Positions 14,126 through 32,000 of a stretch of DNA of 32,000 nt are shown piece by piece (position 1 is the stretch's first letter; each line of letters starts with the position of its first letter). This DNA comes from Halogeometricum borinquense DSM 11551. Its GTDB lineage: Archaea > Halobacteriota > Halobacteria > Halobacteriales > Haloferacaceae. The stretch covers positions 120,001 through 152,000 of the forward strand of contig NC_014736.1 in assembly GCF_000172995.2 (NCBI RefSeq), given 5' to 3'. The position numbers were made by a program, and so were the translations under genes. Under the pieces are notes generated by a model that ran no database searches, was not told where the DNA came from, and saw nothing but the letters and a program-made list of their open reading frames with translations.

Positions 14126-15004
14126 TCAGTTAGTTGTGAGAACGGGGATTTCGGACTGTCTGACAACGCGGGTAGTCGTACTCCCCAAGAAACCGTCCAT
14201 GTCGGCAGTCTGACCGCGAGTCCCCATCGTGATCACGTCAGCGTTGACTCCAGTGGCGTACGCGAGAATCTCCTCGTGAGGGACGCCACGAAGGATATCG
14301 GTTGTCACCGGAAGGCGCCGTTCGCGTGCGTCGGCCGCGATATCCTCGATTGCGTTCTGGCCGCCCTGCTTGAGGAGGCCGACGATACTGCCCGGAGCGT
14401 CTACGAACCCGTAGGTCGTCGTGTCGATGACGTATATCACGTGGACATCGGCTCCATAGCGCTCGGCGATGCTGAGGCCATGAGCAGCGGCACGTTCGGC
14501 GGCACCACTACCGTCGATAGGAATCACGACGTGGTCGTACATCCCGTACCCGTGTTCAGGGAGGTCTTCGTCTTCAGTAAGGTGGACTGCCATCACTGGT
14601 ACGTCGGCGTGCGTAATCACCCGTTCAGTGGTGCTTCCGAACCGAGACCGTTCAGCCCCCGTTCGGCCGTGCGTCCCCATCACGACCAAGTCGATGTCGT
14701 TCTCGTCAATGTAGTCGAGTATCTCTCGGTACGGGATTCCCTCATTGACGGCCCGAACGGTTTCGATTCCGAGGTCTGCGGCCTGCTCGTCAAGCTGTAC
14801 GGTTGCCCCTCGTCCGCGTTTTTCCGACTGGCTTCGCAGTTCGTCGCGCGCTGCGGCATCCAGTTGACTCGGTTCGAGGCTCTCGTCGATGGCGTAAAGG
14901 ACGTGGGTAGTCGCGTTAGCAGTTCGAGCGAGGTCAAGTGCACGAGCAATTGCGCTTTCGGCCCCGCGACTACCATCCGTCGGGACGAGGATGTTGTCGT
15001 ACAT
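14126..15004 (-). CDS. universal stress protein, tandem UspA domains
   Basis: 292 aa. MYDNILVPTDGSRGAESAIARALDLA...DLVVMGTHGRTGAERSRFGSTTERVI is repeated in the second half as YDHVVIPIDGSGAAERAAAHG...DVITMGTRGQTADMDGFLGSTTTRVV. The 304-aa + ORF 14120..15034 is its antisense shadow. Confidence 0.9.
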   Translation of the reverse strand: MYDNILVPTDGSRGAESAIARALDLARTANATTHVLYAIDESLEPSQLDAAARDELRSQSEKRGRGATVQLDEQAADLGIETVRAVNEGIPYREILDYIDENDIDLVVMGTHGRTGAERSRFGSTTERVITHADVPVMAVHLTEDEDLPEHGYGMYDHVVIPIDGSGAAERAAAHGLSIAERYGADVHVIYVIDTTTYGFVDAPGSIVGLLKQGGQNAIEDIAADARERRLPVTTDILRGVPHEEILAYATGVNADVITMGTRGQTADMDGFLGSTTTRVVRQSEIPVLTTN

Positions 15005-15520: not shown

Positions 15521-17869
15521 ATGGTTGAACATACCCGGACTCTCGATTTTAAAATCGCTTTCGCCATTGGACTCGGGACGATGATCGCGGCCGGCATCTT
15601 TTCACTTTCCGGGACTGCTGTCTACCGTATCGGCTCAAGTGCGGTTATCGCGTTTGTTCTCGCCGCTGTCGTCGCCGGAATAACTGCCGCCGCTTATTCC
15701 GAATTTGCTTCGATGTACTCCGAAAACGGGGGTGGGTATCTCTTTTGTTCTCGAACGTTCGACGGTGCCGACCGACTGAAGTACGCTATCGGCGCATCGC
15801 TCTTTCTCGGCTACACCGGCACGACAGCCTTCTACCTCGCAACAATGGACGAGTGGTTCTTCCGGTTCATTCTCCCCGACTCACTCCACGTGCTCCCTCA
15901 CGGATCTGTGGGCATCCTCTCTGCCCTCACGCTTGGTGTGCTCAACGCCCGCGGAACGGAGGAATCGGGGATATTTCAACTGCTAGTCACGAGTGCGAAA
16001 GTCGGTGTCCTGTTCGTCTTCATCGCCGGAGCACTCACGTTCGCCGGGCCGGGAGACGCAACCGGGCGGTTCGTATCCAACTTTCAAGCTGAACCCGTCG
16101 GCATCGTTTCGGTTGCCGCGCTCGCCTTTATCACTTTCTTCGGATTCTCCGCTATCGCGGCCAGCGCAGGCGAAATTATCGAACCCAGGAAAACCGTCCC
16201 TAAGGCCATCGCGGCCAGCATCATCACCGTCACGGTCCTCTACACGTTCGTCATCGTTGCGATGGTGAACGCGCCGGTTCCCCGGTCGGTACTCGCGGAG
16301 GGGGAGACTGCGATGGGGACCGTTGCTGCGTCGTTTCTCGGCTCGTGGGGGCAGCTTCTCATCGTCGCCGGGGCGGTCTTCTCGATGGTGAGTGCCTCGA
16401 ATGCCTCGATTCTCGCGGCCAGCGGAATTGGGTCACTAATGGGTCAACAGGGACATGGACCCCGCCGGTTCGCGTATCTTCACCCGGAGTATCGGACGCC
16501 GTTCTGGAGTATCACGATGGCGACGGCAACTATCGTCGGCCTCATCTTCGTGTTCATCACCCTGTTCTCCGAACAGGGGCTGACGGGCATTCACGCTCTC
16601 GGCCTCGAACCGCTCACCGGGTTCGCTACGTTCAACTTGCTGGTTCCTCTGGCCGTGGTCAACGGGACTCTCATTTACTCTCGGCGGAATCATCCCGACC
16701 TAGAACGGGGGTTCCGGATGCCGCTCGTCCCCCTTCTCCCAGTTGTGGGCATTCTGGCTAATCTGGCGCTCATAACGAATCTTCCGCCGGTCGGCGTCGC
16801 TGTCGGCGTCGGATTTGTTGTCGTCCTCGGTATCGCCTACATCGCCTGGGGGGGCGCACCCCATATCGAGGAACTCATCGAAGAGGTGGTGCCACCCCAT
16901 CTCCCAACAGGGGTACCCACAGCTGTTGGACCGGTTGGATCCACCGAGGGAACCGAACCGGATTTGGGCGACCGGTTCACGATTCTCGTTTCCGTCGCTC
17001 GCCCCGACCGCGCGGTCTCATACGTACGACTCGCAACCGAACTTGCCCGAGCCCAAGACCGCAAACCGCTCGTGAAAGTCCTCAACGTGACTCATATCCC
17101 AGACCAGACGCCGAACGAGATGGTCCGCGACACGGCCGAAAAGCGGGCCGGAGATATCAAGGAGTTACTCGCGGAGGCCGATATCGGCGTCGAATACAGC
17201 GTCGAGGGACACATCTGCCGAGACATCGCGTTCGATATCGTCCAGACGGCGCGGAACGGACAGGTTGACCGAATCCTGATGGGTTACCCTGAGGAGAGCC
17301 AGAGCATCGCAGAAACAGTCGAGTACAGTGCTCCTTGCGGGGTCTTCTTCACCAGTAACGTGGACGCCATCGGAGAGCTCACAACAATCAACATCGGCGC
17401 GGGCGGCGGTCCGCATCATCTGGCGCTGTTACCGCTCGTGAACAAACTCGGTCAGCACGGAGACGAGATTCACGTTATCAGTATCGACCCACTATCAGGA
17501 GGCTTGAAGGAACCGGTCGATGAAACCATGGCGGCGCTCTCAGCCGTCGAATCCGTCCACGTTCACAACCTCACCGCAGACACGGTGGCAGAGGGTCTGG
17601 TGTCTGCTGCGGTGGGGAACGGCGGACTCCTCATCATCGGGGCAACTCGAGACCGGCGCCTCCGGCGGTGGGTCTTCGGGAGTACTCCTGACCGGGTCAT
17701 CGATCTGGCCAGAGAGGCCAACGTCCCCGTGATTATTTACGCGAGTTCGAGCGGTGTCACCCGTCATATCGAGGACTATCTCTATCCGATCTATCGCTAC
17801 CTCCACCGACATCTCGCGGAGCGACGACCGTTCCGGCGGTTCATCCGGACACCCGAGAAAACCTCGTAG
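15521..17869 (+). CDS. APC-superfamily amino acid permease fused to C-terminal tandem Usp domains
   Basis: 782 aa. The N-terminal approx 450 aa have 12 or so TM helices with the APC signature (FAIGLGTMIAAGIFSLSGTA...YSEFASMYSENGGGYLF). The C-terminal approx 300 aa have two Usp-like modules (RFTILVSVARPD...DRILMGYPE and INIGAGGGPHHLALL...LLIIGATRDRRLRRWVFGSTPDRVI). Confidence 0.9.
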   Translation: MVEHTRTLDFKIAFAIGLGTMIAAGIFSLSGTAVYRIGSSAVIAFVLAAVVAGITAAAYSEFASMYSENGGGYLFCSRTFDGADRLKYAIGASLFLGYTGTTAFYLATMDEWFFRFILPDSLHVLPHGSVGILSALTLGVLNARGTEESGIFQLLVTSAKVGVLFVFIAGALTFAGPGDATGRFVSNFQAEPVGIVSVAALAFITFFGFSAIAASAGEIIEPRKTVPKAIAASIITVTVLYTFVIVAMVNAPVPRSVLAEGETAMGTVAASFLGSWGQLLIVAGAVFSMVSASNASILAASGIGSLMGQQGHGPRRFAYLHPEYRTPFWSITMATATIVGLIFVFITLFSEQGLTGIHALGLEPLTGFATFNLLVPLAVVNGTLIYSRRNHPDLERGFRMPLVPLLPVVGILANLALITNLPPVGVAVGVGFVVVLGIAYIAWGGAPHIEELIEEVVPPHLPTGVPTAVGPVGSTEGTEPDLGDRFTILVSVARPDRAVSYVRLATELARAQDRKPLVKVLNVTHIPDQTPNEMVRDTAEKRAGDIKELLAEADIGVEYSVEGHICRDIAFDIVQTARNGQVDRILMGYPEESQSIAETVEYSAPCGVFFTSNVDAIGELTTINIGAGGGPHHLALLPLVNKLGQHGDEIHVISIDPLSGGLKEPVDETMAALSAVESVHVHNLTADTVAEGLVSAAVGNGGLLIIGATRDRRLRRWVFGSTPDRVIDLAREANVPVIIYASSSGVTRHIEDYLYPIYRYLHRHLAERRPFRRFIRTPEKTS

Positions 17870-20834: not shown

Positions 20835-21914
20835 TCACGGTACGAATAAGAGTACGAGCGGGCCGAGTAAGAGCGATAGAACAAATCCCACGAACAGTCG
20901 GCGATCAGTGAGGAGGCGGTCGTGGAACACGGCGATTAGACGGCTGTAGCTGTCATGGACGACGAGCGCAATCAGTGTCACAAGCGTTGCAGTTACGAGC
21001 AGTACGAGCACGACTGCGACGCCGACAGCCGATTCGAGGAGAATCGCCACGACCAGCGTGTCAAATAGCGTCCCGAGATTTGCGCCGAGTACGTACGGAA
21101 TGAGTTCATCCCGCTTGACATAGCCACGGTTGTATAGAGGAACGATAACGCCGAGTGAGAACGCAACACTCGTGGTCACACCGGTGACTAACAGGCCGAT
21201 ACCGAACGAAACCCACGTGTTTCGGAGGTGACGAAAAAACCGGTCGCGGAGTGTCGCCGTATCAACGCTCGTGAGGAGGCGATCAAACAGTCTCAGACTG
21301 CCAAACAGTATCCCAACGGCCAAAAGAAAAGATAGCAGTGGTCCGATACGAGTCGTGATAGCAACGGTGAGCGGGTGGAAAAACGAAAGCGGCTGCGATC
21401 TGAGGGTCCACCCAGAGCTGACGGAATAAAAGGGGCCACGAAAGTATGGGAGTGCGATGTATCCCAAAACGGTGACCGGGACGTACACCGAGTGAGTCAA
21501 AAGGAAGGTAAGGAGGCCCATACTGACTGATTTCTGCAGGGAGTACCGTTCCTTCTGGAAATAATCGAGAACGCCGATGAACACAACGATGGCTGCAGCA
21601 CCGAGACGTGAGCCAGCGACCATCAGAAACAGTTGCGGGACAGAAACGATACCGGCGGAGAAAAAAGAGAGGGAGAGTGCCGCGATTACTGATCCATTGG
21701 CGAGGACATATGTCCCGAACCAACTGAGGCCAAGAGTAGCGGTATCCTCCACCGAAATACGGGAGAATACAGGTTTGAGAACCGGTGCTGCGGCGTCTGT
21801 GGCCGTCCCCAATAGCTGGACGGCAAACAAGAACAGCAAGATCGTTACAAGGGCACTAATCGGAAGCAGACGAGAAAATAGCGGAGCGAGAAGATCAGAT
21901 AGACGAGAGCTCAC
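20835..21914 (-). CDS. Na+/phosphate-cotransporter-family-like membrane protein
   Basis: 359 aa, polytopic. The repeated half-motifs (SWFGTYVLANGSVIAALSLSFFSAGI...AGSRLGAAAIV and TSVAFSLGVIVPLYNRGY...VLGANLGTLFDTLVVA) resemble the duplicated Na/Pi cotransporter (NptA-type) signature GAN(I/L)GT. Confidence 0.55.
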   Translation of the reverse strand: MSSRLSDLLAPLFSRLLPISALVTILLFLFAVQLLGTATDAAAPVLKPVFSRISVEDTATLGLSWFGTYVLANGSVIAALSLSFFSAGIVSVPQLFLMVAGSRLGAAAIVVFIGVLDYFQKERYSLQKSVSMGLLTFLLTHSVYVPVTVLGYIALPYFRGPFYSVSSGWTLRSQPLSFFHPLTVAITTRIGPLLSFLLAVGILFGSLRLFDRLLTSVDTATLRDRFFRHLRNTWVSFGIGLLVTGVTTSVAFSLGVIVPLYNRGYVKRDELIPYVLGANLGTLFDTLVVAILLESAVGVAVVLVLLVTATLVTLIALVVHDSYSRLIAVFHDRLLTDRRLFVGFVLSLLLGPLVLLFVP

Positions 21915-23603: not shown

Positions 23604-23657
23604 TTGACAGAGGGAGGTTAGTTGACAGAGAGAGGTTAGTTGACGGAGGGGGGTTAG
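23604..23657. repeat. three tandem 18-bp repeats between orc1 stop and VanZ start
   Basis: TTGACAGAGGGAGGTTAG (23604-23621), TTGACAGAGAGAGGTTAG (23622-23639) and TTGACGGAGGGGGGTTAG (23640-23657) are followed by a partial GCGGACAG. Purine-rich on the + strand. Confidence 0.9.
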
Positions 23658-23717: not shown

Positions 23718-24968
23718 TCAATTTGTTTGGTCCCTGAGATTCTCGAATCGAGGATCAGAAAGAAGAACTCGTTTGACGATACGTGGCTCCTCAAGCAGCC
23801 GATGGCGACCGTGAATACCTTGACCTCGCCCTCGACCTTTGACCTCTGATTGAATCACATTCAAAAAGTCGAGTTCCTTGAGAATCTCCTGAACACGGCG
23901 TTCCGATAGTTGGTCCATGTCCAGTGAATTCGCAATACTGAGGTATTGACGGTAAACGTTGCTCGTTGTGACCTTCGCGCCTTGATCACCCTCTGTCTGC
24001 AAAACGAGCGCGTAAAGAATAACCTTAGATTGAGAGGTCTGGCCGTCGAGGAGTTCACGGAACCGGTCCGTTTCTGTTTTCTCCTTGGCCGCACGGACGT
24101 GGTCTTCGGTCACTTTTTCGGCGTCTTCTTTTGTTGCTATGCGACCGGCATTGCGGAGGATGTCAATCGCTTTCCGAGCGTCCCCGTGTTCCTGTGCAGC
24201 GAGTGCGCTCGTGAGCGGGATAACGTCATCAGTCAAAGCGCCCTCTTCGAAGGCGTGCGTCCGGTTTCGCAGTATCTCCCGGAGTTCGTTCGCATCGTAC
24301 GAAGAGAACACTAACTCGTCGTGCGCGAAGCTGGATTTGACACGCTCAGTGAGTTCATCGGGGAAATCAATTTTGTTCGAGACGCCAATAATACCGAGAC
24401 GCGAATCGACGATTCGCTGATTCTCACCTGCTCGAGAGAGTTTCCGGAGAACTTCGTCGTCTTGGAGCATATCTATCTCGTCGAGGACGACGATAGTGAC
24501 ATCCGAACACGTGTCGAGGACCCGCCAGAGTCGGTTGTAGTAGTCCCCCGTAGAGAGTCCTCGTTCGGGGATGGTCATCCCGCTTTTCGACGGATCGTTT
24601 ACGGATGACGCGAGCGTTTTGATGACGGAGGCCTCTGTATTCTGCTCTCCGCAGTCTACAGTCGCAACACGGACAGTAACACCTTCATTCTGAGCCTCTT
24701 GTTGAAGGCGGCGTGAGACCATGCGTGCTGTCAGCGTCTTCCCGGAACCCGTTTTCCCGAAAATAAACAGATGAGTCGGAGACTGACCGAAAATAGCAGG
24801 ATTCAGTGCTTCCGCAACTTGTGCCATATGTTCGTCACGACCCACAATCTTGTCGGGACCAGGGAGGTGTGAGATCTCAAGAATCTCCTTGTTCGCAAAA
24901 ATTGGCTGATCGTATCTGAAGAGAGGGTCACGTTCATCGGTTGTCGATTCGCTGTTTTCCCCGTTCAT
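23718..24968 (-). CDS. orc1: Orc1/Cdc6 replication initiator (AAA+ plus winged helix)
   Basis: 416 aa. LPGPDKIVGRDEHMAQV, Walker A GKTGSGKT, Walker B VVLDEIDML, sensor region IGVSN, HGDARKAIDILRNAG, and a C-terminal winged-helix region (SERRVQEILKELDFLNVI). An origin-like repeat array lies directly upstream. Confidence 0.95.
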   Translation of the reverse strand: MNGENSESTTDERDPLFRYDQPIFANKEILEISHLPGPDKIVGRDEHMAQVAEALNPAIFGQSPTHLFIFGKTGSGKTLTARMVSRRLQQEAQNEGVTVRVATVDCGEQNTEASVIKTLASSVNDPSKSGMTIPERGLSTGDYYNRLWRVLDTCSDVTIVVLDEIDMLQDDEVLRKLSRAGENQRIVDSRLGIIGVSNKIDFPDELTERVKSSFAHDELVFSSYDANELREILRNRTHAFEEGALTDDVIPLTSALAAQEHGDARKAIDILRNAGRIATKEDAEKVTEDHVRAAKEKTETDRFRELLDGQTSQSKVILYALVLQTEGDQGAKVTTSNVYRQYLSIANSLDMDQLSERRVQEILKELDFLNVIQSEVKGRGRGQGIHGRHRLLEEPRIVKRVLLSDPRFENLRDQTN

Positions 24969-25303
24969 CCGTATCCACTTTCTGTATATGCGATTAGATA
25001 AAGATAGGGGACCAGTTCCGCGGGTGTAAAACGAGGGTTTCAGGAACTAATTATCCGAGAATACACAGATACAGTGAGTTTAGACGAGGGGACTACCGTC
25101 GCGTGTGTAAGAACCAGTATCAGAGACCACCTTCACGTCTGTAACTCAGATAGAGGGTAGCTCAAGAGACCGTCGTGTCTGTAAATGAGGGGGTACCGTC
25201 GCGTTTGTAAGTAGGGTACGGTCGTGTTTGTAACAACACGGACACCACCCTCGCGTCTGTAAACGACACAGAACCCATCAGGCCCACTCATCAGATGGTT
25301 TTG

Positions 25304-25331
25304 GGATAGTTGTCAGTGGATAGTTGTCAGT
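25304..25331. repeat. perfect tandem duplication of a 14-mer inside the origin-like region
   Basis: GGATAGTTGTCAGT (25304-25317) is repeated exactly at 25318-25331. Confidence 0.9.
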
Positions 25332-25367
25332 GTAGCAGAACTCACGAATTGAATGGTTTTCATCATC

Positions 25368-25393
25368 ACACACACCACCCTCGCGTTTGTAAC
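25368..25393 (+). promoter_or_regulatory. long ORB-like element, left arm of a 26-bp perfect inverted repeat
   Basis: ACACACACCACCCTCGCGTTTGTAAC is followed 8 nt later by the double G-string GTGGGGGGTGGGGGGTG (25401-25417). Confidence 0.7.
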
Positions 25394-25502
25394 GCAAAGA
25401 GTGGGGGGTGGGGGGTGCGGAATTGGCCTGTCAAACGGCTTCCTCTGCCAGATTTACAAACGCGAAGGTGGTGTGTTGATTTCTCCCCACTACCCAATAG
25501 TA

Positions 25503-25528
25503 GTTACAAACGCGAGGGTGGTGTGTGT
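25503..25528 (-). promoter_or_regulatory. long ORB-like element, right arm of the 26-bp perfect inverted repeat
   Basis: GTTACAAACGCGAGGGTGGTGTGTGT is the exact reverse complement of 25368-25393. A third long copy in the same orientation lies at 25453-25474 (20/22 match). Confidence 0.7.
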
Positions 25529-25705: not shown

Positions 25706-28700
25706 TCAGATACTCGATACGGCCTCCAACTGACGCTGGATACGCGAGACAACCTCCTCAATACGATCCCGATTTCCAAGCCGTAGCGAGATAACTCCGT
25801 CTTTCTCTTCGACCGAGTAGATTTTCATCGCACCAGCCGTCTCAGGGAGATCAGCGAGGCTCACCATCTCAACGAGGTTCCACCCTGCAGGGTACTGCTC
25901 GATTTCGACCGTCGCCGTCTCCAGTGGTGTCGAAGTCTCTTGAACGAGCGTCATTGCTGCCGATTTCGCCAACCGGTCGCTCGTTGCCGCCGGAATCGTT
26001 TGCGTCGTTGCGAGTGCTTCATCGCCGTCCCACGAGGGAAGCGCATACTCTCCTTGACCCTGCGTCCCGTTGACGACTGCCTTCTCGGTGATAGCCTCAT
26101 CGTCGATGTTGTAATCGTAATCAACGAGGTTCACATCACCCGACGCCTCACGCTGTCCCGGCCGAGTGAACACCACAGCAAGCGATTCTGTCGATTGCTC
26201 CCAACGAACCTCCCAGATGAAGTTGCCAAATTCTGCGATATCATTGAGAATCTCACGAATTTCACCATCGAACGACTGGCTGTTGAGTAACGGCGTGTCG
26301 TTGAGGTCCGAGAAGAGGTCGAACAGGTCCACGCTCTGCCCGGCGTTCCGTTCGAGAATCCCATCCCCATCGTCGTAGCTCGACAGGGAGAAGCGTGCCC
26401 GGATCTGTCCGCTCCCACTCGCAAACTGTCCGGAAACGGTTTCGGTGTTCGAGGCGCTGACCCACGACTTGCCTTGGTCGTTTGAGATGGCGACCGCCTG
26501 CTCGTTTTGCGTGTTATCCCACGAGGACTGCAGTTCTCCTGCGATAACCTGTCGAATTGACGGTACATCCACTGTTTCAGCCGACATATCGGGATACGCA
26601 TTCAGCGTCGTGACTTTCCCACCGGGGGAAGTGAGCCGGTCCCCGTACCCGTCTGAATAACGAGTGTCGAAGACACCGATTGTGTCGATATAGATGTAAC
26701 CCGAGTCCGAGCCGGTCGTTACTTCGGCTTTGATCGTATGCGTTCCTGCGGCGAGTCCGCCTGATATATCGAGCGTGAGAAAACGAACATCCGGGAACTG
26801 GAATCCGTTTCCGAGATTTTCTGGCCCGACCGGTCGGATCTGGGTCCCATCAACACTGAACGTGACTTCTGGTCCGACCGACTCGTTACTTTCCGAGATG
26901 CGCACAGCTAGTTGCGCACTCCCTCCGGGAATGTCGTGGTCTAGGGTAATATTCCATTCGTGTATTTGTCCGGATGCCTGATACCTCGATGCCGTGCCGC
27001 CAACGAACTCATCAGATTCCAAGATGTCGGGCGCCCACAACTGATCGTCCGGATTTACCCCTTGCCGCAGTACGGCCGTCTTCGTCGTCTCAAGACGGCC
27101 GTTTTCGACGCGCAGTGGTACGTCCGATGCGAATGGGTAGTCTCGGAGGACACCCTGCCACTCCGAACCGGTGTCGGCGTCGAGCATCATCGTATCCGAG
27201 GAGACATCGGCCTGCGGATCGTCCACGTTCACCGTTAGCGACGTCTCCTCGTTCAGGAGGCCCCGAACGAAGTCGTCAGCCTCCTGTTCGCTGACGGACT
27301 TCTCCACGTGCTTGAGAAGGTCCTCGCCGCCGCGGGCGACGAGTCGCGTCGCCTCCGGCGTCTGCGACCGATTGATCAGTCGTTCGACCGGGAGTCGCTT
27401 CCCGTCTTTCCAGATACGGATGGGGGCTCGCTCGAAAGCGTCGTCGAGCCACTTTTCGTTCTTTGGGACTGGGATTTCGACCTTGGGCAGACCGTTGAGT
27501 TTCGGCCGCGGTTTCGGATCATCGATGACTGTTGGGGTGAGCGTCTGTCCTTCGGGGTGGTCAACCTCAACATGCCAACCCTGTGCGGGTCGTTGATTCG
27601 AATCGACAGTGGAAGGCTGCGTCGTCGTCTCAATTGGTTCAGAGGAGGCTTTCGTGTCCTCCGTGTACGTTTCGAGTCGAAGCCGATACCCCGTTCCCGG
27701 GAGTGCGGAGATCGACGCTGACTCCGTGTTCGGCGCAGGTTCGGCGACGAGTTGCTCGTTGGAGTACGAGCCGTTACGTTTCTCGGCACGGAAAATTCGG
27801 AACCCATTTTCATTGTCAGTCTTGTCGGTCCACGAGAGATCGATCTGCGTCTGTGTCACGCTATCGACGGTGAATCCCGATGGTGTCGGGAGATTCATCT
27901 GGATCGAGACAGGCGTCGTCCACGCGCCCGTGGCGTACTCCGTCTCCGTACGAGCGCGGATTTCGTACTCCTCGCCATCCTTACGTCCGTCGAAGACCGT
28001 CGAGAGTGTGTCATACGCGAGGATCTGCTCGTCGAACCCCGTCGCGGTTGAGTCCCACGATGACTCTCCCGTCTCGCGGATCTGCACGCGCACGTCGCCG
28101 TAATTCGTCGGCGACGTTTCGCGGTCAACAGCGACCTCGTCCTTGACGTCGTTGCTGAGGACTGGCTGGTCTTCGTCGGGGAGCACCGTGATAAATGGTT
28201 CAGACAGGCTGGTCGCCGGCTCTACGTCATTTGCGGCCACCACACGAACCTCGTACTCTTCACCATTGTTCAGGTTCGTTAGCGTTGTGGACTCTGTATC
28301 CGGTGAAACCGTCTCAACGACCGTCCATGACAATGTCCCAGTCAGCCGATACTCGACCCGTGTTTCGCCGTCGTTGTGCGTGGCCGTCCACGACACGTCT
28401 GCTGTCGTTGCCCCAACATTCGAGACCACAACGTCGGTTGGTGCCGGAATCGGCGTCGTTGTCGTCGTCGTGTCCGCCGATGATGTGTGCGTTGAGTAGT
28501 ACCGGACGCGTACGTCGTACTGCTCGCCGTCGTCGAGCTCCGTGATCGTGTGGCTCGTCGCACTCGTCGAGAGCGTCGCGTCTGTCGTCCACCCGGACGT
28601 TCCCGTCTCTCGGTAGTCCACGTCAATTCCCGACAGCGCCCCCGTCTCGCCTCCGTACGACCACGCGAGGTCGAGTTGACGCGACGACGGCGCGACGGAT

Positions 28701-29542
28701 TCGATTGTCGGCGTGTGAGATGGGATAGAGACTGTGACTTCGACCTCGTTCGAGAGGTAACCCGTGTCGGCATCCTCAACGCGGTAGTAGTACTGTTCCC
28801 CATCGAGGACGGTCGTGTCCGTGTACGACTGCGAGCCGACGTCTGATGCAATCAGCGTGTAGTCTGACGACGCCATCCCCGACGATTCTGCACGGAGGAT
28901 GTTGTACGAGTCGGCCGTCCCACTCCACAGCAGGTCGACATCGTCGGCTGACTGTGTCGCCGAGAGGTTTTCGATGAGACCGATCGTCTCGATCGAAACA
29001 TTGTCGAAGTCCTTCGTTCCAGTGGTCGAGAAATGTGCTCCCGACCACGAGAGCACAGAGCCTCCCGTGTCGAACGTCACATCCGTCGCCGTCAGTTCCA
29101 GCGTGCCGTCGACGAACACGCGGATTTCGTTGTGCTCGCGGTCTGCCTCGACAGCGAACGTCCCGCTCCCTGCCGTGAGCGATTTCGAGGCCAGCATCGA
29201 CACGCTCCCCGCCGACATCTTGAAGATTTTCAAGATGTCGTCCGCGACATTCCAAGTGACGCAGAAAGCGTTTTCTGTATTATCGCTATCACCTGTACTA
29301 TACGAGTCCGGAGCGTCTGCGTAGATGGAGAGTCGGTGAAACCCCGAGGAGTCATTCCCGGAGGTGAAGTCCCACTCCGTTCGGAGCGAGTCTGTATAGC
29401 CCGGATCGTACTCTAGATGACCTTCACTTCCCGACGATGTTCCGACGAGCCGGATCATCCCAGAATCTGATAGGTACTGTGCTGAATCGTGTAGCGTCCA
29501 CGTCTCCGAATCAAACGTCGAAAAGTCGTCAGAGTAAGCCAT
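25706..29542 (-). CDS. giant modular protein: N-terminal ConA/LamG-like domain, five FN3-like repeats, approx 640-aa unassigned beta-rich C-terminal region; no signal peptide (virus tail-fibre / receptor-binding-like)
   Basis: 1278 aa and acidic. Residues approx 1-185 (28988-29542) read ...TEWDFTSGNDSSGFHRLSIYAD...EIRVFVDGTLELT...KDFDNVSIE, a LamG-like jelly-roll pattern. Residues approx 190-640 (27623-28975) are five approx 90-aa modules with the W...Y..(V/I)R pattern (DLLWSG..DGEQYYYRV; LDLAWSY..DGEQYDVRVRY; ADVSWTA..NGEEYEVRVVA; ..DGEEYEIRAR; IDLSWTD..GTGYRLRLETY), plus a TTTTTT linker. The N-terminus MAYSDDFSTFDSETW has no hydrophobic or twin-arginine signal, and no C-terminal anchor is visible. 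Confidence 0.8.
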   Translation of the reverse strand: MAYSDDFSTFDSETWTLHDSAQYLSDSGMIRLVGTSSGSEGHLEYDPGYTDSLRTEWDFTSGNDSSGFHRLSIYADAPDSYSTGDSDNTENAFCVTWNVADDILKIFKMSAGSVSMLASKSLTAGSGTFAVEADREHNEIRVFVDGTLELTATDVTFDTGGSVLSWSGAHFSTTGTKDFDNVSIETIGLIENLSATQSADDVDLLWSGTADSYNILRAESSGMASSDYTLIASDVGSQSYTDTTVLDGEQYYYRVEDADTGYLSNEVEVTVSIPSHTPTIESVAPSSRQLDLAWSYGGETGALSGIDVDYRETGTSGWTTDATLSTSATSHTITELDDGEQYDVRVRYYSTHTSSADTTTTTTPIPAPTDVVVSNVGATTADVSWTATHNDGETRVEYRLTGTLSWTVVETVSPDTESTTLTNLNNGEEYEVRVVAANDVEPATSLSEPFITVLPDEDQPVLSNDVKDEVAVDRETSPTNYGDVRVQIRETGESSWDSTATGFDEQILAYDTLSTVFDGRKDGEEYEIRARTETEYATGAWTTPVSIQMNLPTPSGFTVDSVTQTQIDLSWTDKTDNENGFRIFRAEKRNGSYSNEQLVAEPAPNTESASISALPGTGYRLRLETYTEDTKASSEPIETTTQPSTVDSNQRPAQGWHVEVDHPEGQTLTPTVIDDPKPRPKLNGLPKVEIPVPKNEKWLDDAFERAPIRIWKDGKRLPVERLINRSQTPEATRLVARGGEDLLKHVEKSVSEQEADDFVRGLLNEETSLTVNVDDPQADVSSDTMMLDADTGSEWQGVLRDYPFASDVPLRVENGRLETTKTAVLRQGVNPDDQLWAPDILESDEFVGGTASRYQASGQIHEWNITLDHDIPGGSAQLAVRISESNESVGPEVTFSVDGTQIRPVGPENLGNGFQFPDVRFLTLDISGGLAAGTHTIKAEVTTGSDSGYIYIDTIGVFDTRYSDGYGDRLTSPGGKVTTLNAYPDMSAETVDVPSIRQVIAGELQSSWDNTQNEQAVAISNDQGKSWVSASNTETVSGQFASGSGQIRARFSLSSYDDGDGILERNAGQSVDLFDLFSDLNDTPLLNSQSFDGEIREILNDIAEFGNFIWEVRWEQSTESLAVVFTRPGQREASGDVNLVDYDYNIDDEAITEKAVVNGTQGQGEYALPSWDGDEALATTQTIPAATSDRLAKSAAMTLVQETSTPLETATVEIEQYPAGWNLVEMVSLADLPETAGAMKIYSVEEKDGVISLRLGNRDRIEEVVSRIQRQLEAVSSI

Positions 29543-30679
29543 CTATCGACGCACCTCCTGTCTCGACCGCAGGTCCAGCGACGCGTTCGTCGTTTCGACC
29601 TCGTCGGATGCGATGGGGCGTAGGTAGTCAGCTAGCCCACTCGGCGTTTGGTTGTCCTCGCCGGATGGGTTCGTGAAGAGAACTTTCGTTCGCCCCCGGT
29701 CCAGTCGCATGTTGAGCGCGTGCTGTACACCGGACGAGGAGTTCTCGAAGACGAGTTGACTACCCACCGAAGCCGGTGCAACGTTCACGAGATCGGCGTC
29801 AACGAGCGACCAGTCCGAGTCGTTGAGTTCGACGTCCTGCCACGCCGCGGAGCCGTCCACCCATTTCTCAGCTGCGATACCGTTCGCTGCGTCGAGCGTG
29901 AGTCGAATCGCACCGTTCGAGACGACCGGCGAGCCGACACAATCGTGAGCCGGTACGAAGACGCGATCCCACTGCACGACATTCTCGGCATCCGTCTTCG
30001 CAACACCACGGTCGTCCCACACTCGGACATCGGTCTTCCCGGACGCGACGTAGGGAAGGTCGTAGATGAGTGCCGACGAGTCGGTCGGTGCGTCACTCGT
30101 GGCGACAAGGGCAACGTCACCGAACTCCGTAGCTGTCGTTGCGGACGGCGTTGCTAGCTGAACCTCGTCTGCAACGGGATCGAACCAACGCATACGGGTC
30201 GCCGCCGCAGGGATACCGACCGCCGTAGACTGTGCGGGATTGTTCGTGATGTCGTTCTGCGTATCCGAGACGTTCATCTCGACTGACCGCCAGTGCGACT
30301 GGCGGGTGCCAGCTTCCTCAAGTACCGCGCCAACATGCTGGAGGCTTCCAGCCGCAGTGGCGTCAAGTGGTTCTGACTGTCCAGAGTGGGCGACGTAGTA
30401 CCCATCGTACTCGGTTGACTCACCGACGCCGAAGAACGGGATCACTCCGTAATCCGAATCGAGGAGTTCGCTAAACTGTGCAGCGAGGCGTCCCGCTCCG
30501 TCGCCCCCGAGGAGAAACTCAAATCGGAGTTCACCCGGTTTGTGAGAGAGCGGTTTCGACATGAGGGCGCAGTCATCATTCGATACCGAGGAAACAGAGG
30601 TCGTCTTGCGGTAGTCGCTATTTCCTAGCTGAACAATCCATTGATCACGCGTTGATAAGGTGTACAGTCTTCGTTTCAT
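29543..30679 (-). CDS. hypothetical 378-aa protein, translationally coupled to the giant gene (tail/baseplate-like by context only)
   Basis: I start it at ATG 30679 (MKRRLYTLSTRDQWIVQLGNSDY...), one base after the TAA of the upstream ORF. The track start at 30844 would overlap that ORF by 164 nt with an Arg/Ser-rich extension. Its TAG (29543-29545) directly abuts the ATG (29542) of the giant gene. It is acidic, looks beta-rich, and has no signal peptide and no recognised motif. Confidence 0.65.
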   Translation of the reverse strand: MKRRLYTLSTRDQWIVQLGNSDYRKTTSVSSVSNDDCALMSKPLSHKPGELRFEFLLGGDGAGRLAAQFSELLDSDYGVIPFFGVGESTEYDGYYVAHSGQSEPLDATAAGSLQHVGAVLEEAGTRQSHWRSVEMNVSDTQNDITNNPAQSTAVGIPAAATRMRWFDPVADEVQLATPSATTATEFGDVALVATSDAPTDSSALIYDLPYVASGKTDVRVWDDRGVAKTDAENVVQWDRVFVPAHDCVGSPVVSNGAIRLTLDAANGIAAEKWVDGSAAWQDVELNDSDWSLVDADLVNVAPASVGSQLVFENSSSGVQHALNMRLDRGRTKVLFTNPSGEDNQTPSGLADYLRPIASDEVETTNASLDLRSRQEVRR

Positions 30680-30680
30680 G

Positions 30681-31307
30681 TTAGAACTCCTCCTGTTCGG
30701 TGAGCGCACCTGCTGGTTCGAGTGACCCAACAGGGACGCACGTGAGTGAAATTTCGACCGAGGACGCTTCGTCGGCTGCTTCGACGACGTGGGGGCCGTT
30801 GGGGATGTAGACCGCCCGCGGTTCGCCGAACAGTCCCGGCTCACCGTCGGTTGTGTACGTGCCGTCGTGGTAGTGACCGAGATGGAGTGTCGCAGGGTTT
30901 AACGAGTCCGTCGTCGCTTGCTCGATGTACCGGGACAGAACATCTGCTTGTGTTCGTGGTCCCGCACCGGTCGCATCGAGAGCAGTGAGCGTCGTTTCGT
31001 CGCCCGTGTTCCCCATCTGGAGATACTCGCCGTTATGAGTCGTCTCTGAGAGGGTGGCACGGATCTTGTACGGGACCTTTCCGCCGCCAGCATCGATAAT
31101 ATACGGCTGTCGGATGTCGTCTGGGGATCCGTCCGAAGGGAAATTGAGCGCGCGGTTGAGAACTTCGTCCGCCGGATTGACGGCGAACGATTTGTTGATG
31201 TCGCCAGTACAGTTGTAGTTCTTTGCCAACTCGAAGATGCCAGTTCGCTGTGCACCGTCGAGTCGGGCGTCGATTTCGAGAACGCAGTTGTTCAAGCGTG
31301 TAACCAT
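30681..31307 (-). CDS. hypothetical 208-aa protein, first gene of the three-gene block
   Basis: ATG 31307 (MVTRLNNCVLEIDARLDGAQRTG...); alternative GTG at 31337. It has G/C-rich third positions, is acidic, and has no TM helix or signal peptide. No family recognised. Confidence 0.6.
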   Translation of the reverse strand: MVTRLNNCVLEIDARLDGAQRTGIFELAKNYNCTGDINKSFAVNPADEVLNRALNFPSDGSPDDIRQPYIIDAGGGKVPYKIRATLSETTHNGEYLQMGNTGDETTLTALDATGAGPRTQADVLSRYIEQATTDSLNPATLHLGHYHDGTYTTDGEPGLFGEPRAVYIPNGPHVVEAADEASSVEISLTCVPVGSLEPAGALTEQEEF

Positions 31308-31543
31308 TTGTGAGAGAATGTGGCGGTGTGACCCCACCGCCGCGGGTGTTCGTCTGCCGATTCCGTAACCTGTGATCCGTTGTATTCGTACCGCTCACGA
31401 GATTCCTATCGACGTCCCGAGATCGAACCCGAGTTTTCCGCTGCGGTCAGTGCCGTTCTTCGAATCTCGTTCCGTCCCAGTCAGACCTCGCTCGCGCGGA
31501 GAGTTGGGTCGCTTCCGCGCTCTCGGTCATCGGTCTGCATTGT

Positions 31544-31864
31544 TCAACGTTGGTCGTCGTCTCGAGACTGGACAGGTGGGTTACCACCTTGGATCATCGC
31601 CCACGCGGCGGCAAACTCGCCGTACTCGATCCCGAGTAGCGGGATGAGCAACGCGACTGTCCCGGCGAAGACGATTGTCGGGTCAGCGCCCTGTCGGGCG
31701 AGCGTGAAACCGTAGCCGAGGATTGCAGCGGCGAAGACGGCGTTCTTGACGAATTTCCATCGTTTGAGGTTCATTGGGGGACACCTCTGGCGAAGAAATT
31801 GATCGAGAGCACGATTCTGGTCGGTGAGTTCTGTGGGAACGAGTCCCTGTCGTGTTTTGGTCAT
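31544..31864 (-). CDS. small membrane protein (2 TM), unknown function
   Basis: 106 aa. MTKTRQGLVPTELTDQNRALDQFLRQR..., then two hydrophobic helices (AVFAAAILGYGFTLA, IVFAGTVALLIPLLGI), then a polar tail. It lies about 200 nt upstream of the three-gene block on the same strand. Confidence 0.45.
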   Translation of the reverse strand: MTKTRQGLVPTELTDQNRALDQFLRQRCPPMNLKRWKFVKNAVFAAAILGYGFTLARQGADPTIVFAGTVALLIPLLGIEYGEFAAAWAMIQGGNPPVQSRDDDQR

Positions 31865-32000
31865 GAGTCAAAGGTTGTGCGAACGTGATCGGGCAGCTGA
31901 ATCGAAACTCGGGGAATTGAGCGACAAAGAGGGAACACTGTCGCCAGCCGTCAGGCGGTCACCCGCTTTCGAGACGCCTCCGAAACACGCACGATGGCGT

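Follow-up and report, generated by a model that had tools for sequence, protein, structure and literature searches.

The 32,000-nucleotide stretch of Halogeometricum borinquense DSM 11551 analyzed here (the window; contig NC_014736.1, positions 120,001 to 152,000) contains three tightly packed minus-strand genes, here called A, B, and C. These are probably the tail-tip genes of a temperate BJ1-like siphovirus, preserved in a headless provirus remnant in which they are under selection, the binding modules of C are exchanged by recombination, and the genes seem to be still in use. The DNA was read from source record GCA_000337855.1, contig AOHT01000004.1 (window position = record position minus 19267), and for a further 9.3 kb past the window edge as locus L003 (window position = 41308 minus L003 position), so that window and extension together cover 41.3 kb. 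The three genes, the parts of C that are discussed below, and the open reading frame (ORF) next to A are as follows:

30681-31307, minus strand: gene A, 208 aa from its ATG; candidate tail-tip-region protein conserved in BJ1-like viruses, homologue of BJ1 gp64
29543-30679, minus strand: gene B, 378 aa; homologue of BJ1 gp65 and HJTV-4 gp40
25706-29542, minus strand: gene C, 1278 aa; a possibly lectin-like module and five probable FN3-like modules fused to a baseplate-hub-type C-terminal half
28128-29493, minus strand: swapped N-terminal adhesin cassette of C, residues ~17-470 (lectin-like module and FN3 modules 1 to 4)
26297-27202, minus strand: gp44-homologous region of C, residues 781-1082 (by hhalign; corresponds to residues 566-887 of HFTV1 gp44, which lie in the C-terminal third of that protein)
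26456-27145, minus strand: variable patch of C, residues 800-1029, inside the gp44-homologous region
31544-31864, minus strand: 106-aa ORF directly upstream of A and co-directional with it, with a hydrophobic segment (Kyte-Doolittle 1.85) at residue 64

The three genes and their viral relatives

The ORFs of A, B, and C follow one another with essentially no spacer, and the junction sequences are exactly those given in the initial annotation of this DNA. A single base separates the stop codon of A from the start codon of B (TAA-c-ATG; gagttcTAAcATGaaa), and the ATG of C directly abuts the TAG of B (cgtcgaTAGATGgct). Gene C stays open over 1278 codons at ~58% GC, which is far beyond chance, and the GC content of the block (0.56 to 0.60) is the same as that of the remaining window. 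The maximum Kyte-Doolittle mean over 19 residues is 1.12 in A, 1.06 in B, and 0.93 in C, and the N terminus of B (MKRRLY) is not followed by a hydrophobic stretch. By this simple hydropathy test, which is not a dedicated signal-peptide predictor, none of the three proteins has a hydrophobic N terminus, a transmembrane helix, or a C-terminal anchor, in agreement with what had been read from the translations at the outset.

A, B, and C belong to phrog_20675 (E 9.2e-72), phrog_18406 (E 1.6e-111), and phrog_18315 (E 2.6e-266), respectively, families that are known only from viruses of bacteria and archaea and are annotated "unknown function." In tblastn searches of 50,697 phage records, the three proteins matched only haloarchaeal tailed viruses (BJ1, CGphi46, Humcor1, HJTV-4, and tailed viruses of Halorubrum lacusprofundi), with eight viral records matched by B. 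A is 28% identical to BJ1 gp64 (E 1e-9), and C is 39% identical to BJ1 gp67 (E 2e-135); C also matches an HRTV-29 protein annotated "baseplate hub" (E 3e-10). BJ1 belongs to the family Graaviviridae in the order Kirjokansivirales. Its homologues of the three genes lie at the far end of the late operon, where the order A-B-C corresponds to gp64-65-(66)-67; in HJTV-4, the tape measure is followed directly by the B homologue gp40 and then by gp41 and the C homologue gp42.

Of 13 related loci from GTDB genomes that were examined, 12 have the homologues within or at the end of a tail module, and the same holds for five proviruses that were found via the closest protein homologues (two from Haloferax, namely sp. 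Atlit-12N and Hfx. elongans, and one each from Halobellus, Halorussus, and a metagenomic contig). In six loci, genes for portal, protease, and capsid lie upstream of B, and most of the others have tail-module genes or a Phage_tube_2 gene there. One locus was too short to judge, and three Halorubrum loci (L016, L017, and L019) gave no BJ1 head or tail match upstream of B; L017 falls within the range of the complete provirus Humcor1 (PMC7911831). In the five closest proviruses, these tail-module or Phage_tube_2 genes are followed by a ~185-aa gene and, in the tape-measure position, by one of ~400 aa; A, B, a variable region, and C come next, usually after a short antisense gene. The relatives and H. 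borinquense share the order A-B-(variable)-C, and their genes abut or overlap. Because of the family memberships, the synteny with BJ1 and HJTV-4, and the contexts of the related proviruses, sequence comparison shows the block to be recognizable as the tail-tip module of a BJ1-like siphovirus. The initial annotation had suggested a distal-tail, baseplate, or receptor-binding module and had proposed profile and structure searches to check this. Those searches, with PHROG matches at E 9.2e-72 to 2.6e-266 and a Foldseek match of C to a tail chain of the virus HFTV1 (see below), agree with the suggestion, as do the synteny and the homology of C to the HFTV1 baseplate hub.

The domain structure of gene C could be described in some detail. 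Pfam fn3 matched C in three stretches (E 1.1e-22), FN3 structures in PDB matched residues 197-642, and the F-strand motif G-x-x-Y-x-[VIL]-R occurs at residues 339, 427, 523, and 616, with a fifth variant, GEQYYYR, found by eye near residue 258. Because of these matches and the five F-strand motifs, the five FN3-like modules proposed in the initial annotation are a reasonable description of this part of the protein. The LamG-like N terminus proposed there fared less well: Pfam gave no match, and the best PDB sequence match of the N-terminal 190 residues was the levanase sugar-binding module 4AZZ at E 0.028, a hint that this region may resemble a lectin-type beta-sandwich.

For the C-terminal half of C, which the initial annotation had left unassigned, homology was found to gp44, the HFTV1 baseplate hub. 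An AlphaFold model of residues 640-1278 had as its best PDB match in Foldseek the HFTV1 tail chain 9h4p_BD, with an E value of 1.7e-16 over 520 columns at 16% identity (TM scores of 0.34/0.24 on a model of pLDDT 64). CBM6/35/36-type folds were frequent among the matches of the same model. Chain 9h4p_BD (953 residues) was assigned to gp44 (954 aa) by its length; the gp44 record carries the annotations "baseplate hub" and "contains a carbohydrate-binding domain." At the sequence level, hhalign aligned C residues 781-1082 with gp44 566-887 at a probability of 99.8% and E 5.5e-30, and found no match in C for gp44 1-560, the N-terminal hub core.

The gp44 of HFTV1 is trimeric; it closes the tail tube via the connector gp41, docks the C termini of the tape measure, and carries the fibres on its N terminus; its C-terminal domain is predicted to bind surface glycans, and the protein is shed upon genome ejection (PMC12494034). 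By analogy, gene C may have the same role in BJ1-like viruses. In a virion, C would then assemble as a trimeric baseplate hub, closing the tail tube and holding the C termini of the tape measure, and its distal sugar-binding region, together with the lectin/FN3 arm, would bind host S-layer or lipid-linked glycans. B would form a ring or adaptor linking the last tube ring to the hub, and A would be a conserved partner in the tail tip.

In complete proviruses, A lies between the ~400-aa gene in the tape-measure position and B. Its family has 205 representatives at 50% clustering, all of ~200 aa, and Pfam and PHROG scans of 118 members returned phrog_20675 (function unknown) as the only family and no Pfam domain. 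Neither Pfam nor NCBIfam matched A or B. PDB sequence searches, for which single sequences and profiles of 17 and 118 sequences served as queries, gave nothing significant for A or B and no match for the variable patch of C; the only hint was a nonsignificant match of A to the "putative baseplate component" of phi812 (E 0.34). The AF2 model of B (pLDDT 70.9) found nothing in PDB at E <= 0.001 with Foldseek. Against BFVD, it matched a viral homologue at E 4.9e-27 and, more weakly (E 2.8e-3), a "Distal tail protein." Further matches, over ~80 residues and with probabilities up to 1.0 at E 0.03 to 0.4, were to proteins of the tail-tube, minor-tail, and tube-cap types. Because of these weak BFVD matches to distal tail, tube, minor-tail, and tube-cap proteins, we consider with moderate confidence that B may be a tube-terminating ring or adaptor of the Dit-like kind.

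The module is of a known kind, a BJ1-like tail tip in a cryptic provirus, and it shares families, gene order, and tight packing with BJ1 gp64-67 and with CGphi46, Humcor1, HJTV-4, and the H. lacusprofundi viruses at 28 to 39% identity. However, in BJ1-like viruses these genes follow those for terminase, portal, capsid, tube, and tape measure, which the H. borinquense remnant does not have. BJ1 also has a separate gp66, whereas H. borinquense has none and C carries a long lectin and FN3 arm (1278 aa, compared with 916 aa in gp67). With HFTV1 gp44 (PDB 9H4P and 9H7V; Haloferuviridae), C shares the homologous distal region, the position as last gene of the tail module, and the setting in a haloarchaeal siphovirus of the same taxonomic order. 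HFTV1, however, has a separate tail-fibre protein, gp42, on the N terminus of gp44, where C has the fused FN3/lectin arm, and its connector gp41 has no detectable relative in A or B. In bacterial siphophages (for example SPP1, p2, and T5), the Dit-Tal-RBP module of the tail tip likewise follows the tape measure and consists of a small, a mid-size, and a very large modular protein with sugar-binding or FN3-type decorations. B weakly resembles tube-fold and Dit proteins, but no significant match places A or B in Dit or Tal.

The viral homologues of A, B, and C in BJ1-like viruses are annotated "hypothetical," and baseplate or tail-fibre genes were not detected in Humcor1 (PMC7911831); for these reasons, the link to the HFTV1 hub is a useful annotation. 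It proposes a function for three "hypothetical" families of BJ1-like haloarchaeal viruses, in which C, as a gp44-type hub with a fused adhesin arm, would be the likely host-range determinant. Several complete relatives also carry a gene for a rhomboid-family protease, an unusual passenger within a tail module, which lies in antisense orientation just after the tape-measure position and before A (L022, 8638-9273; L026, 7939-8547).

A headless remnant older than the strain split

The cassette A-B-C is the last part of a co-directional remnant of ~12 kb. Upstream of A, in order, lie the 106-aa ORF with its hydrophobic segment, a BJ1 gp41-like protein (phrog_27334, 4.5e-41), an 84-aa winged helix-turn-helix protein like HJTV-4 gp8, repeat-rich and coiled-coil ORFs, PCNA (NF002222, 213.9 bits, above the cut-off), four 27-bp tandem repeats, and a short viral-type orc1/cdc6-like ATPase (phrog_7998, E 1.4e-52; 31% identity to BJ1 gp16). 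These are followed by two small divergent ORFs, a cellular-type cdc6 with classical origin recognition box (ORB) repeats, and an ATPase_2/DUF234 gene. The layout of the remnant is roughly that of a BJ1-like genome lacking ~15 kb, the gp42-gp63 region.

No homologue of the BJ1 terminase, portal, protease, capsid, connector, tube, tape measure, MCM, or integrase was found in the 41.3 kb, and gp64, gp65, and gp67 were the only BJ1 structural proteins with a match there. Genes for the tail tube, chaperone, and tape measure, which would be expected directly upstream of A-B-C in a BJ1-like tail module, do not lie there. A tRNA scan and Rfam gave no tRNA in the window, and no convincing att-like flanking direct repeat was found; the repeat search returned ORB clusters and short tandem repeats. 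The locus is therefore, in the DNA read, a headless and integrase-less provirus remnant, and because genes for terminase, portal, capsid, tail tube, tape measure, and integrase are all missing, it is unable to form particles unaided.

The initial annotation had seen no capsid, portal, terminase, tape-measure, or integrase gene, and this holds for the window and for the 9.3 kb past its edge. It had left the choice between the end of a provirus and some other virus-derived apparatus and had pointed to the DNA beyond position 32000, of which the 9.3 kb read contain BJ1-like replication and regulatory genes and no hallmark structural gene or att repeat. Of the two suggestions, virus derivation stands, in the form of a remnant, and no provirus body lies beyond the edge in the DNA read. 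An intact provirus running past the window edge was rejected, and the marks of an intact inducible tailed provirus (terminase, portal, major capsid, tail-tube, and tape-measure genes, an integrase, att repeats, and a tRNA) were not found in the DNA read. A tailocin was rejected because tube, sheath, and tape measure are missing.

The block as delimited in the initial annotation, which ends at 31864, takes in the 106-aa ORF as a fourth co-directional gene. This ORF lies at the very junction where complete relatives have their head, tail-tube, and tape-measure genes. A gene is called there in all four sequenced H. borinquense strains, although it has only 76 aa in two of them, and the ORF is intact with a ratio of nonsynonymous to synonymous divergence (dN/dS) of 0.32 in the single strain pair compared. 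No homologue was found in BJ1, HJTV-4, or the related proviruses, and phrog_18714 matched it weakly (E 0.005).

The headless architecture, the flanking genes, and the locus are the same in all four sequenced H. borinquense strains: DSM 11551, ELS19 (GCA_004150395), GCA_040679015, and G3I44 (CP048739). A, B, and C are full length and without an internal stop in each. A 20-kb alignment divides the strains into two clades, with identities mostly of 99 to 100% within clades and, between clades, mostly of 95 to 99% in coding DNA and ~92% in some intergenic or repeat-rich windows. The between-clade dN/dS values of A, B, and C are 0.24, 0.22, and 0.23, respectively (154 nonsynonymous and 201 synonymous changes in A-C), compared with 0.01 to 0.10 for flanking cellular genes and 0.05 to 0.15 for the orc1-like, PCNA, and coiled-coil genes of the remnant. 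In a comparison of two strains, 354 substitutions in A-C had produced no stop codon, whereas 13.4 were expected under neutrality (P ~1.5e-6), and the two indels, of 60 and 3 nt, were both in frame. Because the truncated state is shared by all strains and the genes have no stops, only in-frame indels, and a low dN/dS, the truncation is old and predates the strain split, and A-C are under purifying selection.

The remnant has been inherited vertically. In the initial annotation, conservation at this locus across the genus, with host-like composition, had been named as something that would speak against a viral module. Conservation was found in 4/4 strains of the species and the GC content is host-like, so that this objection applies in part; the shared locus and the host-like composition are taken as marks of an old, vertically inherited remnant and not of cellular origin.

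Mosaicism of gene C and possible reasons for retention

A mosaic pattern is seen in the block and is limited to gene C. The N-terminal cassette (the 5' 1.4 kb of the gene) exists as two alleles with 52 to 63% nucleotide identity and 59% protein identity, one in DSM 11551 and GCA_040679015 and the other in ELS19 and G3I44, a distribution that cuts across the clades; adjacent FN3-sized segments show two further strain partitions. Within the alleles, between-clade synonymous divergence (dS) is 0.092 and 0.100, which equals the background, so that both alleles appear to be about as old as the clade split, whereas dS between alleles is >3. The dN/dS values within alleles are 0.15 and 0.29. The variable patch in the gp44-homologous region has a dS of 0.61, compared with ~0.08 in its flanks, and a dN/dS of 0.21. 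From these comparisons, recombination is shown to diversify the putative binding modules of C and no other part of the block, and the pattern resembles a maintained dimorphism in the presumed receptor-binding arm. Diversification of the type driven by a diversity-generating retroelement or an invertase was rejected because the alleles differ by 40 to 50% at all codon positions and no reverse transcriptase or invertase match was found among genes on record or scanned.

The constraint on the three genes leads us to infer that they are still in use and not decaying. A provirus that decayed recently, with ORFs that have so far escaped disabling mutations, is an improbable account of the locus. The element has no autonomy genes, and one called "ORF" of 92/95 aa has a dN/dS of 0.94, as such a wreck might; however, the truncation is common to strains ~1 to 8% apart in nucleotides, and the lack of stops (0 versus 13.4 expected), the in-frame indels, and dN/dS values of 0.22 to 0.24 oppose it. 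It is also unlikely, if less so, that the remnant is a functionless reservoir that looks constrained because it is repeatedly overwritten, through homologous recombination, by the tail-tip genes of related infecting viruses, to which it would in turn give up segments for use in host range. The mosaic segments, with dS from 0.6 to >3 within a background that is 99 to 100% identical, would fit this, and the tail tips of related proviruses are modular, with a variable B-C region and a varying number of FN3 modules. However, dS is at background level (0.07 to 0.13) in A, in B, and in the conserved segments of C, with a dN/dS of 0.1 to 0.24, and these parts have therefore not been imported recently and are still constrained. 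Constraint extends to the replication genes in the remnant (0.05 to 0.15), and no H. borinquense virus was found in the phage collection, the closest relatives being <=40% identical. A helper-dependent satellite, which would replicate with its own orc1-like initiator, PCNA, and iterons, be packaged by a helper, and use its own tail tip to redirect the particles, is highly improbable. It would account for the replication module (orc1/cdc6-like phrog_7998, PCNA NF002222, and the four 27-bp repeats) and for host-range genes that are kept and diversified. But there is no integrase or excision gene, att repeat, or tRNA target, the same chromosomal position and host-like divergence in 4/4 strains indicate vertical spread, and no similar headless element turned up in GTDB or IMG/VR scans, in which three loci had no BJ1 match upstream and some matches were short contigs without context. 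A PLSDB megablast also gave nothing and carries little weight, as that collection is believed to be essentially bacterial. Ordinary cellular surface adhesins or S-layer-associated glycoproteins built of FN3 and lectin modules can be practically set aside. Such modules are typical of extracellular binding proteins and the composition is host-like, yet A, B, and C have no signal peptide, transmembrane helix, or anchor; apart from the FN3 modules of C, homologues with a readable context are all viral or proviral, with A and B at the tail-tip position; and C has a homologue in the baseplate hub of a virion whose structure is solved.

The retained genes may serve the host or act through interplay with related infecting viruses. 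It is possible, though we hold the idea only tentatively, that the cassette has been domesticated, that is, that a headless and immobile remnant is kept for the host because it poisons or retargets virus tails or decoys receptors. In its more specific form, tail-tip proteins would co-assemble with the tails of related invading viruses and spoil them (tail-assembly interference) or, after lysis, occupy the surface-glycan receptors of neighboring kin, and the two alleles of the binding module would follow the diversity of receptors or viruses; this we consider rather unlikely. The fixed locus, with divergence equal to that of the flanking host genes, fits vertical inheritance and therefore selection at the host level, and the dN/dS of ~0.2 and the absence of stop codons in A-C fit as well. 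Both cassette alleles date to the clade split and each is constrained, as under balancing selection. Protein searches (word-seeded, the genomes not being scanned directly) found no paralogue of A, B, or C in H. borinquense, which makes a resident helper from their own family less likely. However, none of the three proteins matched a PADLOC defence family at E <= 0.01 or has an export signal, and the idea is borrowed from bacterial cryptic prophages, so that the archaeal case is made by analogy.

Several points also weigh against the tail-tip interpretation itself. The C-terminal model of C is of modest quality (pLDDT 64, pTM 0.36). The sequence-level homology between C and gp44 is limited to the distal part and leaves out the hub core. 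Profiles of A and B gave no match to the HFTV1 connector gp41 family with hhalign; their roles are putative, and B has no significant PDB fold match. Low dN/dS could in part have been imported with segments recombined from functional viruses, and the headless call covers 9.3 kb past the window edge and not the remaining genome.

Tail-fibre cassettes of bacterial cryptic prophages are known to persist in defective prophages and to recombine with infecting phages. The H. borinquense locus shares with them a nonautonomous remnant with intact, mosaic host-range genes. It differs in being archaeal, in keeping a whole tail tip (A, B, and hub) and a replication module, in being fixed across the sequenced strains under purifying selection with an old two-allele polymorphism, and in having no invertase or fibre-assembly chaperone. 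Phage satellites of the P4 type or the phage-inducible chromosomal island (PICI) type likewise have their own replication module, but their integrase or excision genes and horizontal mobility were not seen here. No paper describing the H. borinquense element or its conserved and polymorphic headless state was found in the literature, and this state, conserved, constrained, and polymorphic, is unusual: an archaeal remnant with no head or tube gene in the DNA read has an intact, constrained, and diversified adsorption apparatus in all sequenced strains. If its retention reflects use by the host, the domestication of prophage tail parts, well known in bacteria, would extend to archaea, and domestication, if true, would be the first case in which an archaeon has exapted the adsorption module of a tailed virus. 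Host-level use would also make the locus, with its two alleles and four natural combinations, a tractable system for virus-receptor arms races on haloarchaeal S-layers; if there is no such use, it is an ordinary cryptic provirus fragment.

Flanking origins and neighboring genes

The initial annotation placed the end of the block next to an orc1 gene and an origin, and both are present:

25088-25528, no strand: cluster of ORB-type direct and inverted repeats (ACACACCACCCTCGCGTTTGTAA) between the end of C and orc1; repeat families D5, D8, and D11 and inverted pairs I3, I5, I8, and I11
23718-24968, minus strand: orc1/cdc6 gene, 416 aa; cellular-type by Pfam families, dN/dS 0.011

The repeat cluster (L003 15780-16220) lies 165 to 180 bp from the end of C, where the remnant ends, and is read as a putative replication origin. 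The orc1 gene is only 26 to 27% identical to BJ1 gp16; it is a neighbor of the cassette and is not shown to be part of the viral remnant. A second ORB-type cluster, with different repeats, is located at L003 2976-3644 (~37664-38332 of the extended window). The two clusters thus bracket the remnant ~12.5 kb apart, each beside an orc1/cdc6 gene under strong constraint (dN/dS 0.011 and 0.017).

Within the remnant, the four tandem 27-bp repeats (L003 5812-5919, ~35389-35496 of the extended window) are flanked by the viral orc1-like gene and the PCNA gene; they fall within the called 92/95-aa ORF with a dN/dS of 0.94 and are probably iterons or an origin and not a gene. The ATPase_2/DUF234 gene (L003 186-1580) matches the PADLOC candidate defence family PDC-S27 (E 3.6e-45). 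On the other side, three tandem 18-nt repeats (CTAACCYCYCTCYGTCAA) were found at 23604-23657, between orc1 and a 129-aa ORF. A Na/Pi cotransporter gene (20835-21914) is present in DSM 11551 and ELS19 and is absent or replaced in GCA_040679015 and G3I44 (a stretch of ~52% identity). The host-like part of the window, which is not virus related, includes isochorismatase, glyoxalase, Fe-ADH, and CDGSH/4Fe-4S genes, as well as genes for a tandem-Usp protein (14126-15004) and an amino-acid permease-Usp fusion (15521-17869). The locus lies on a 210,350-bp record in DSM 11551 and on the 3.99-Mb chromosome record CP048739.1 in G3I44, which suggests a replicon fusion or a differing replicon organization between the strains.

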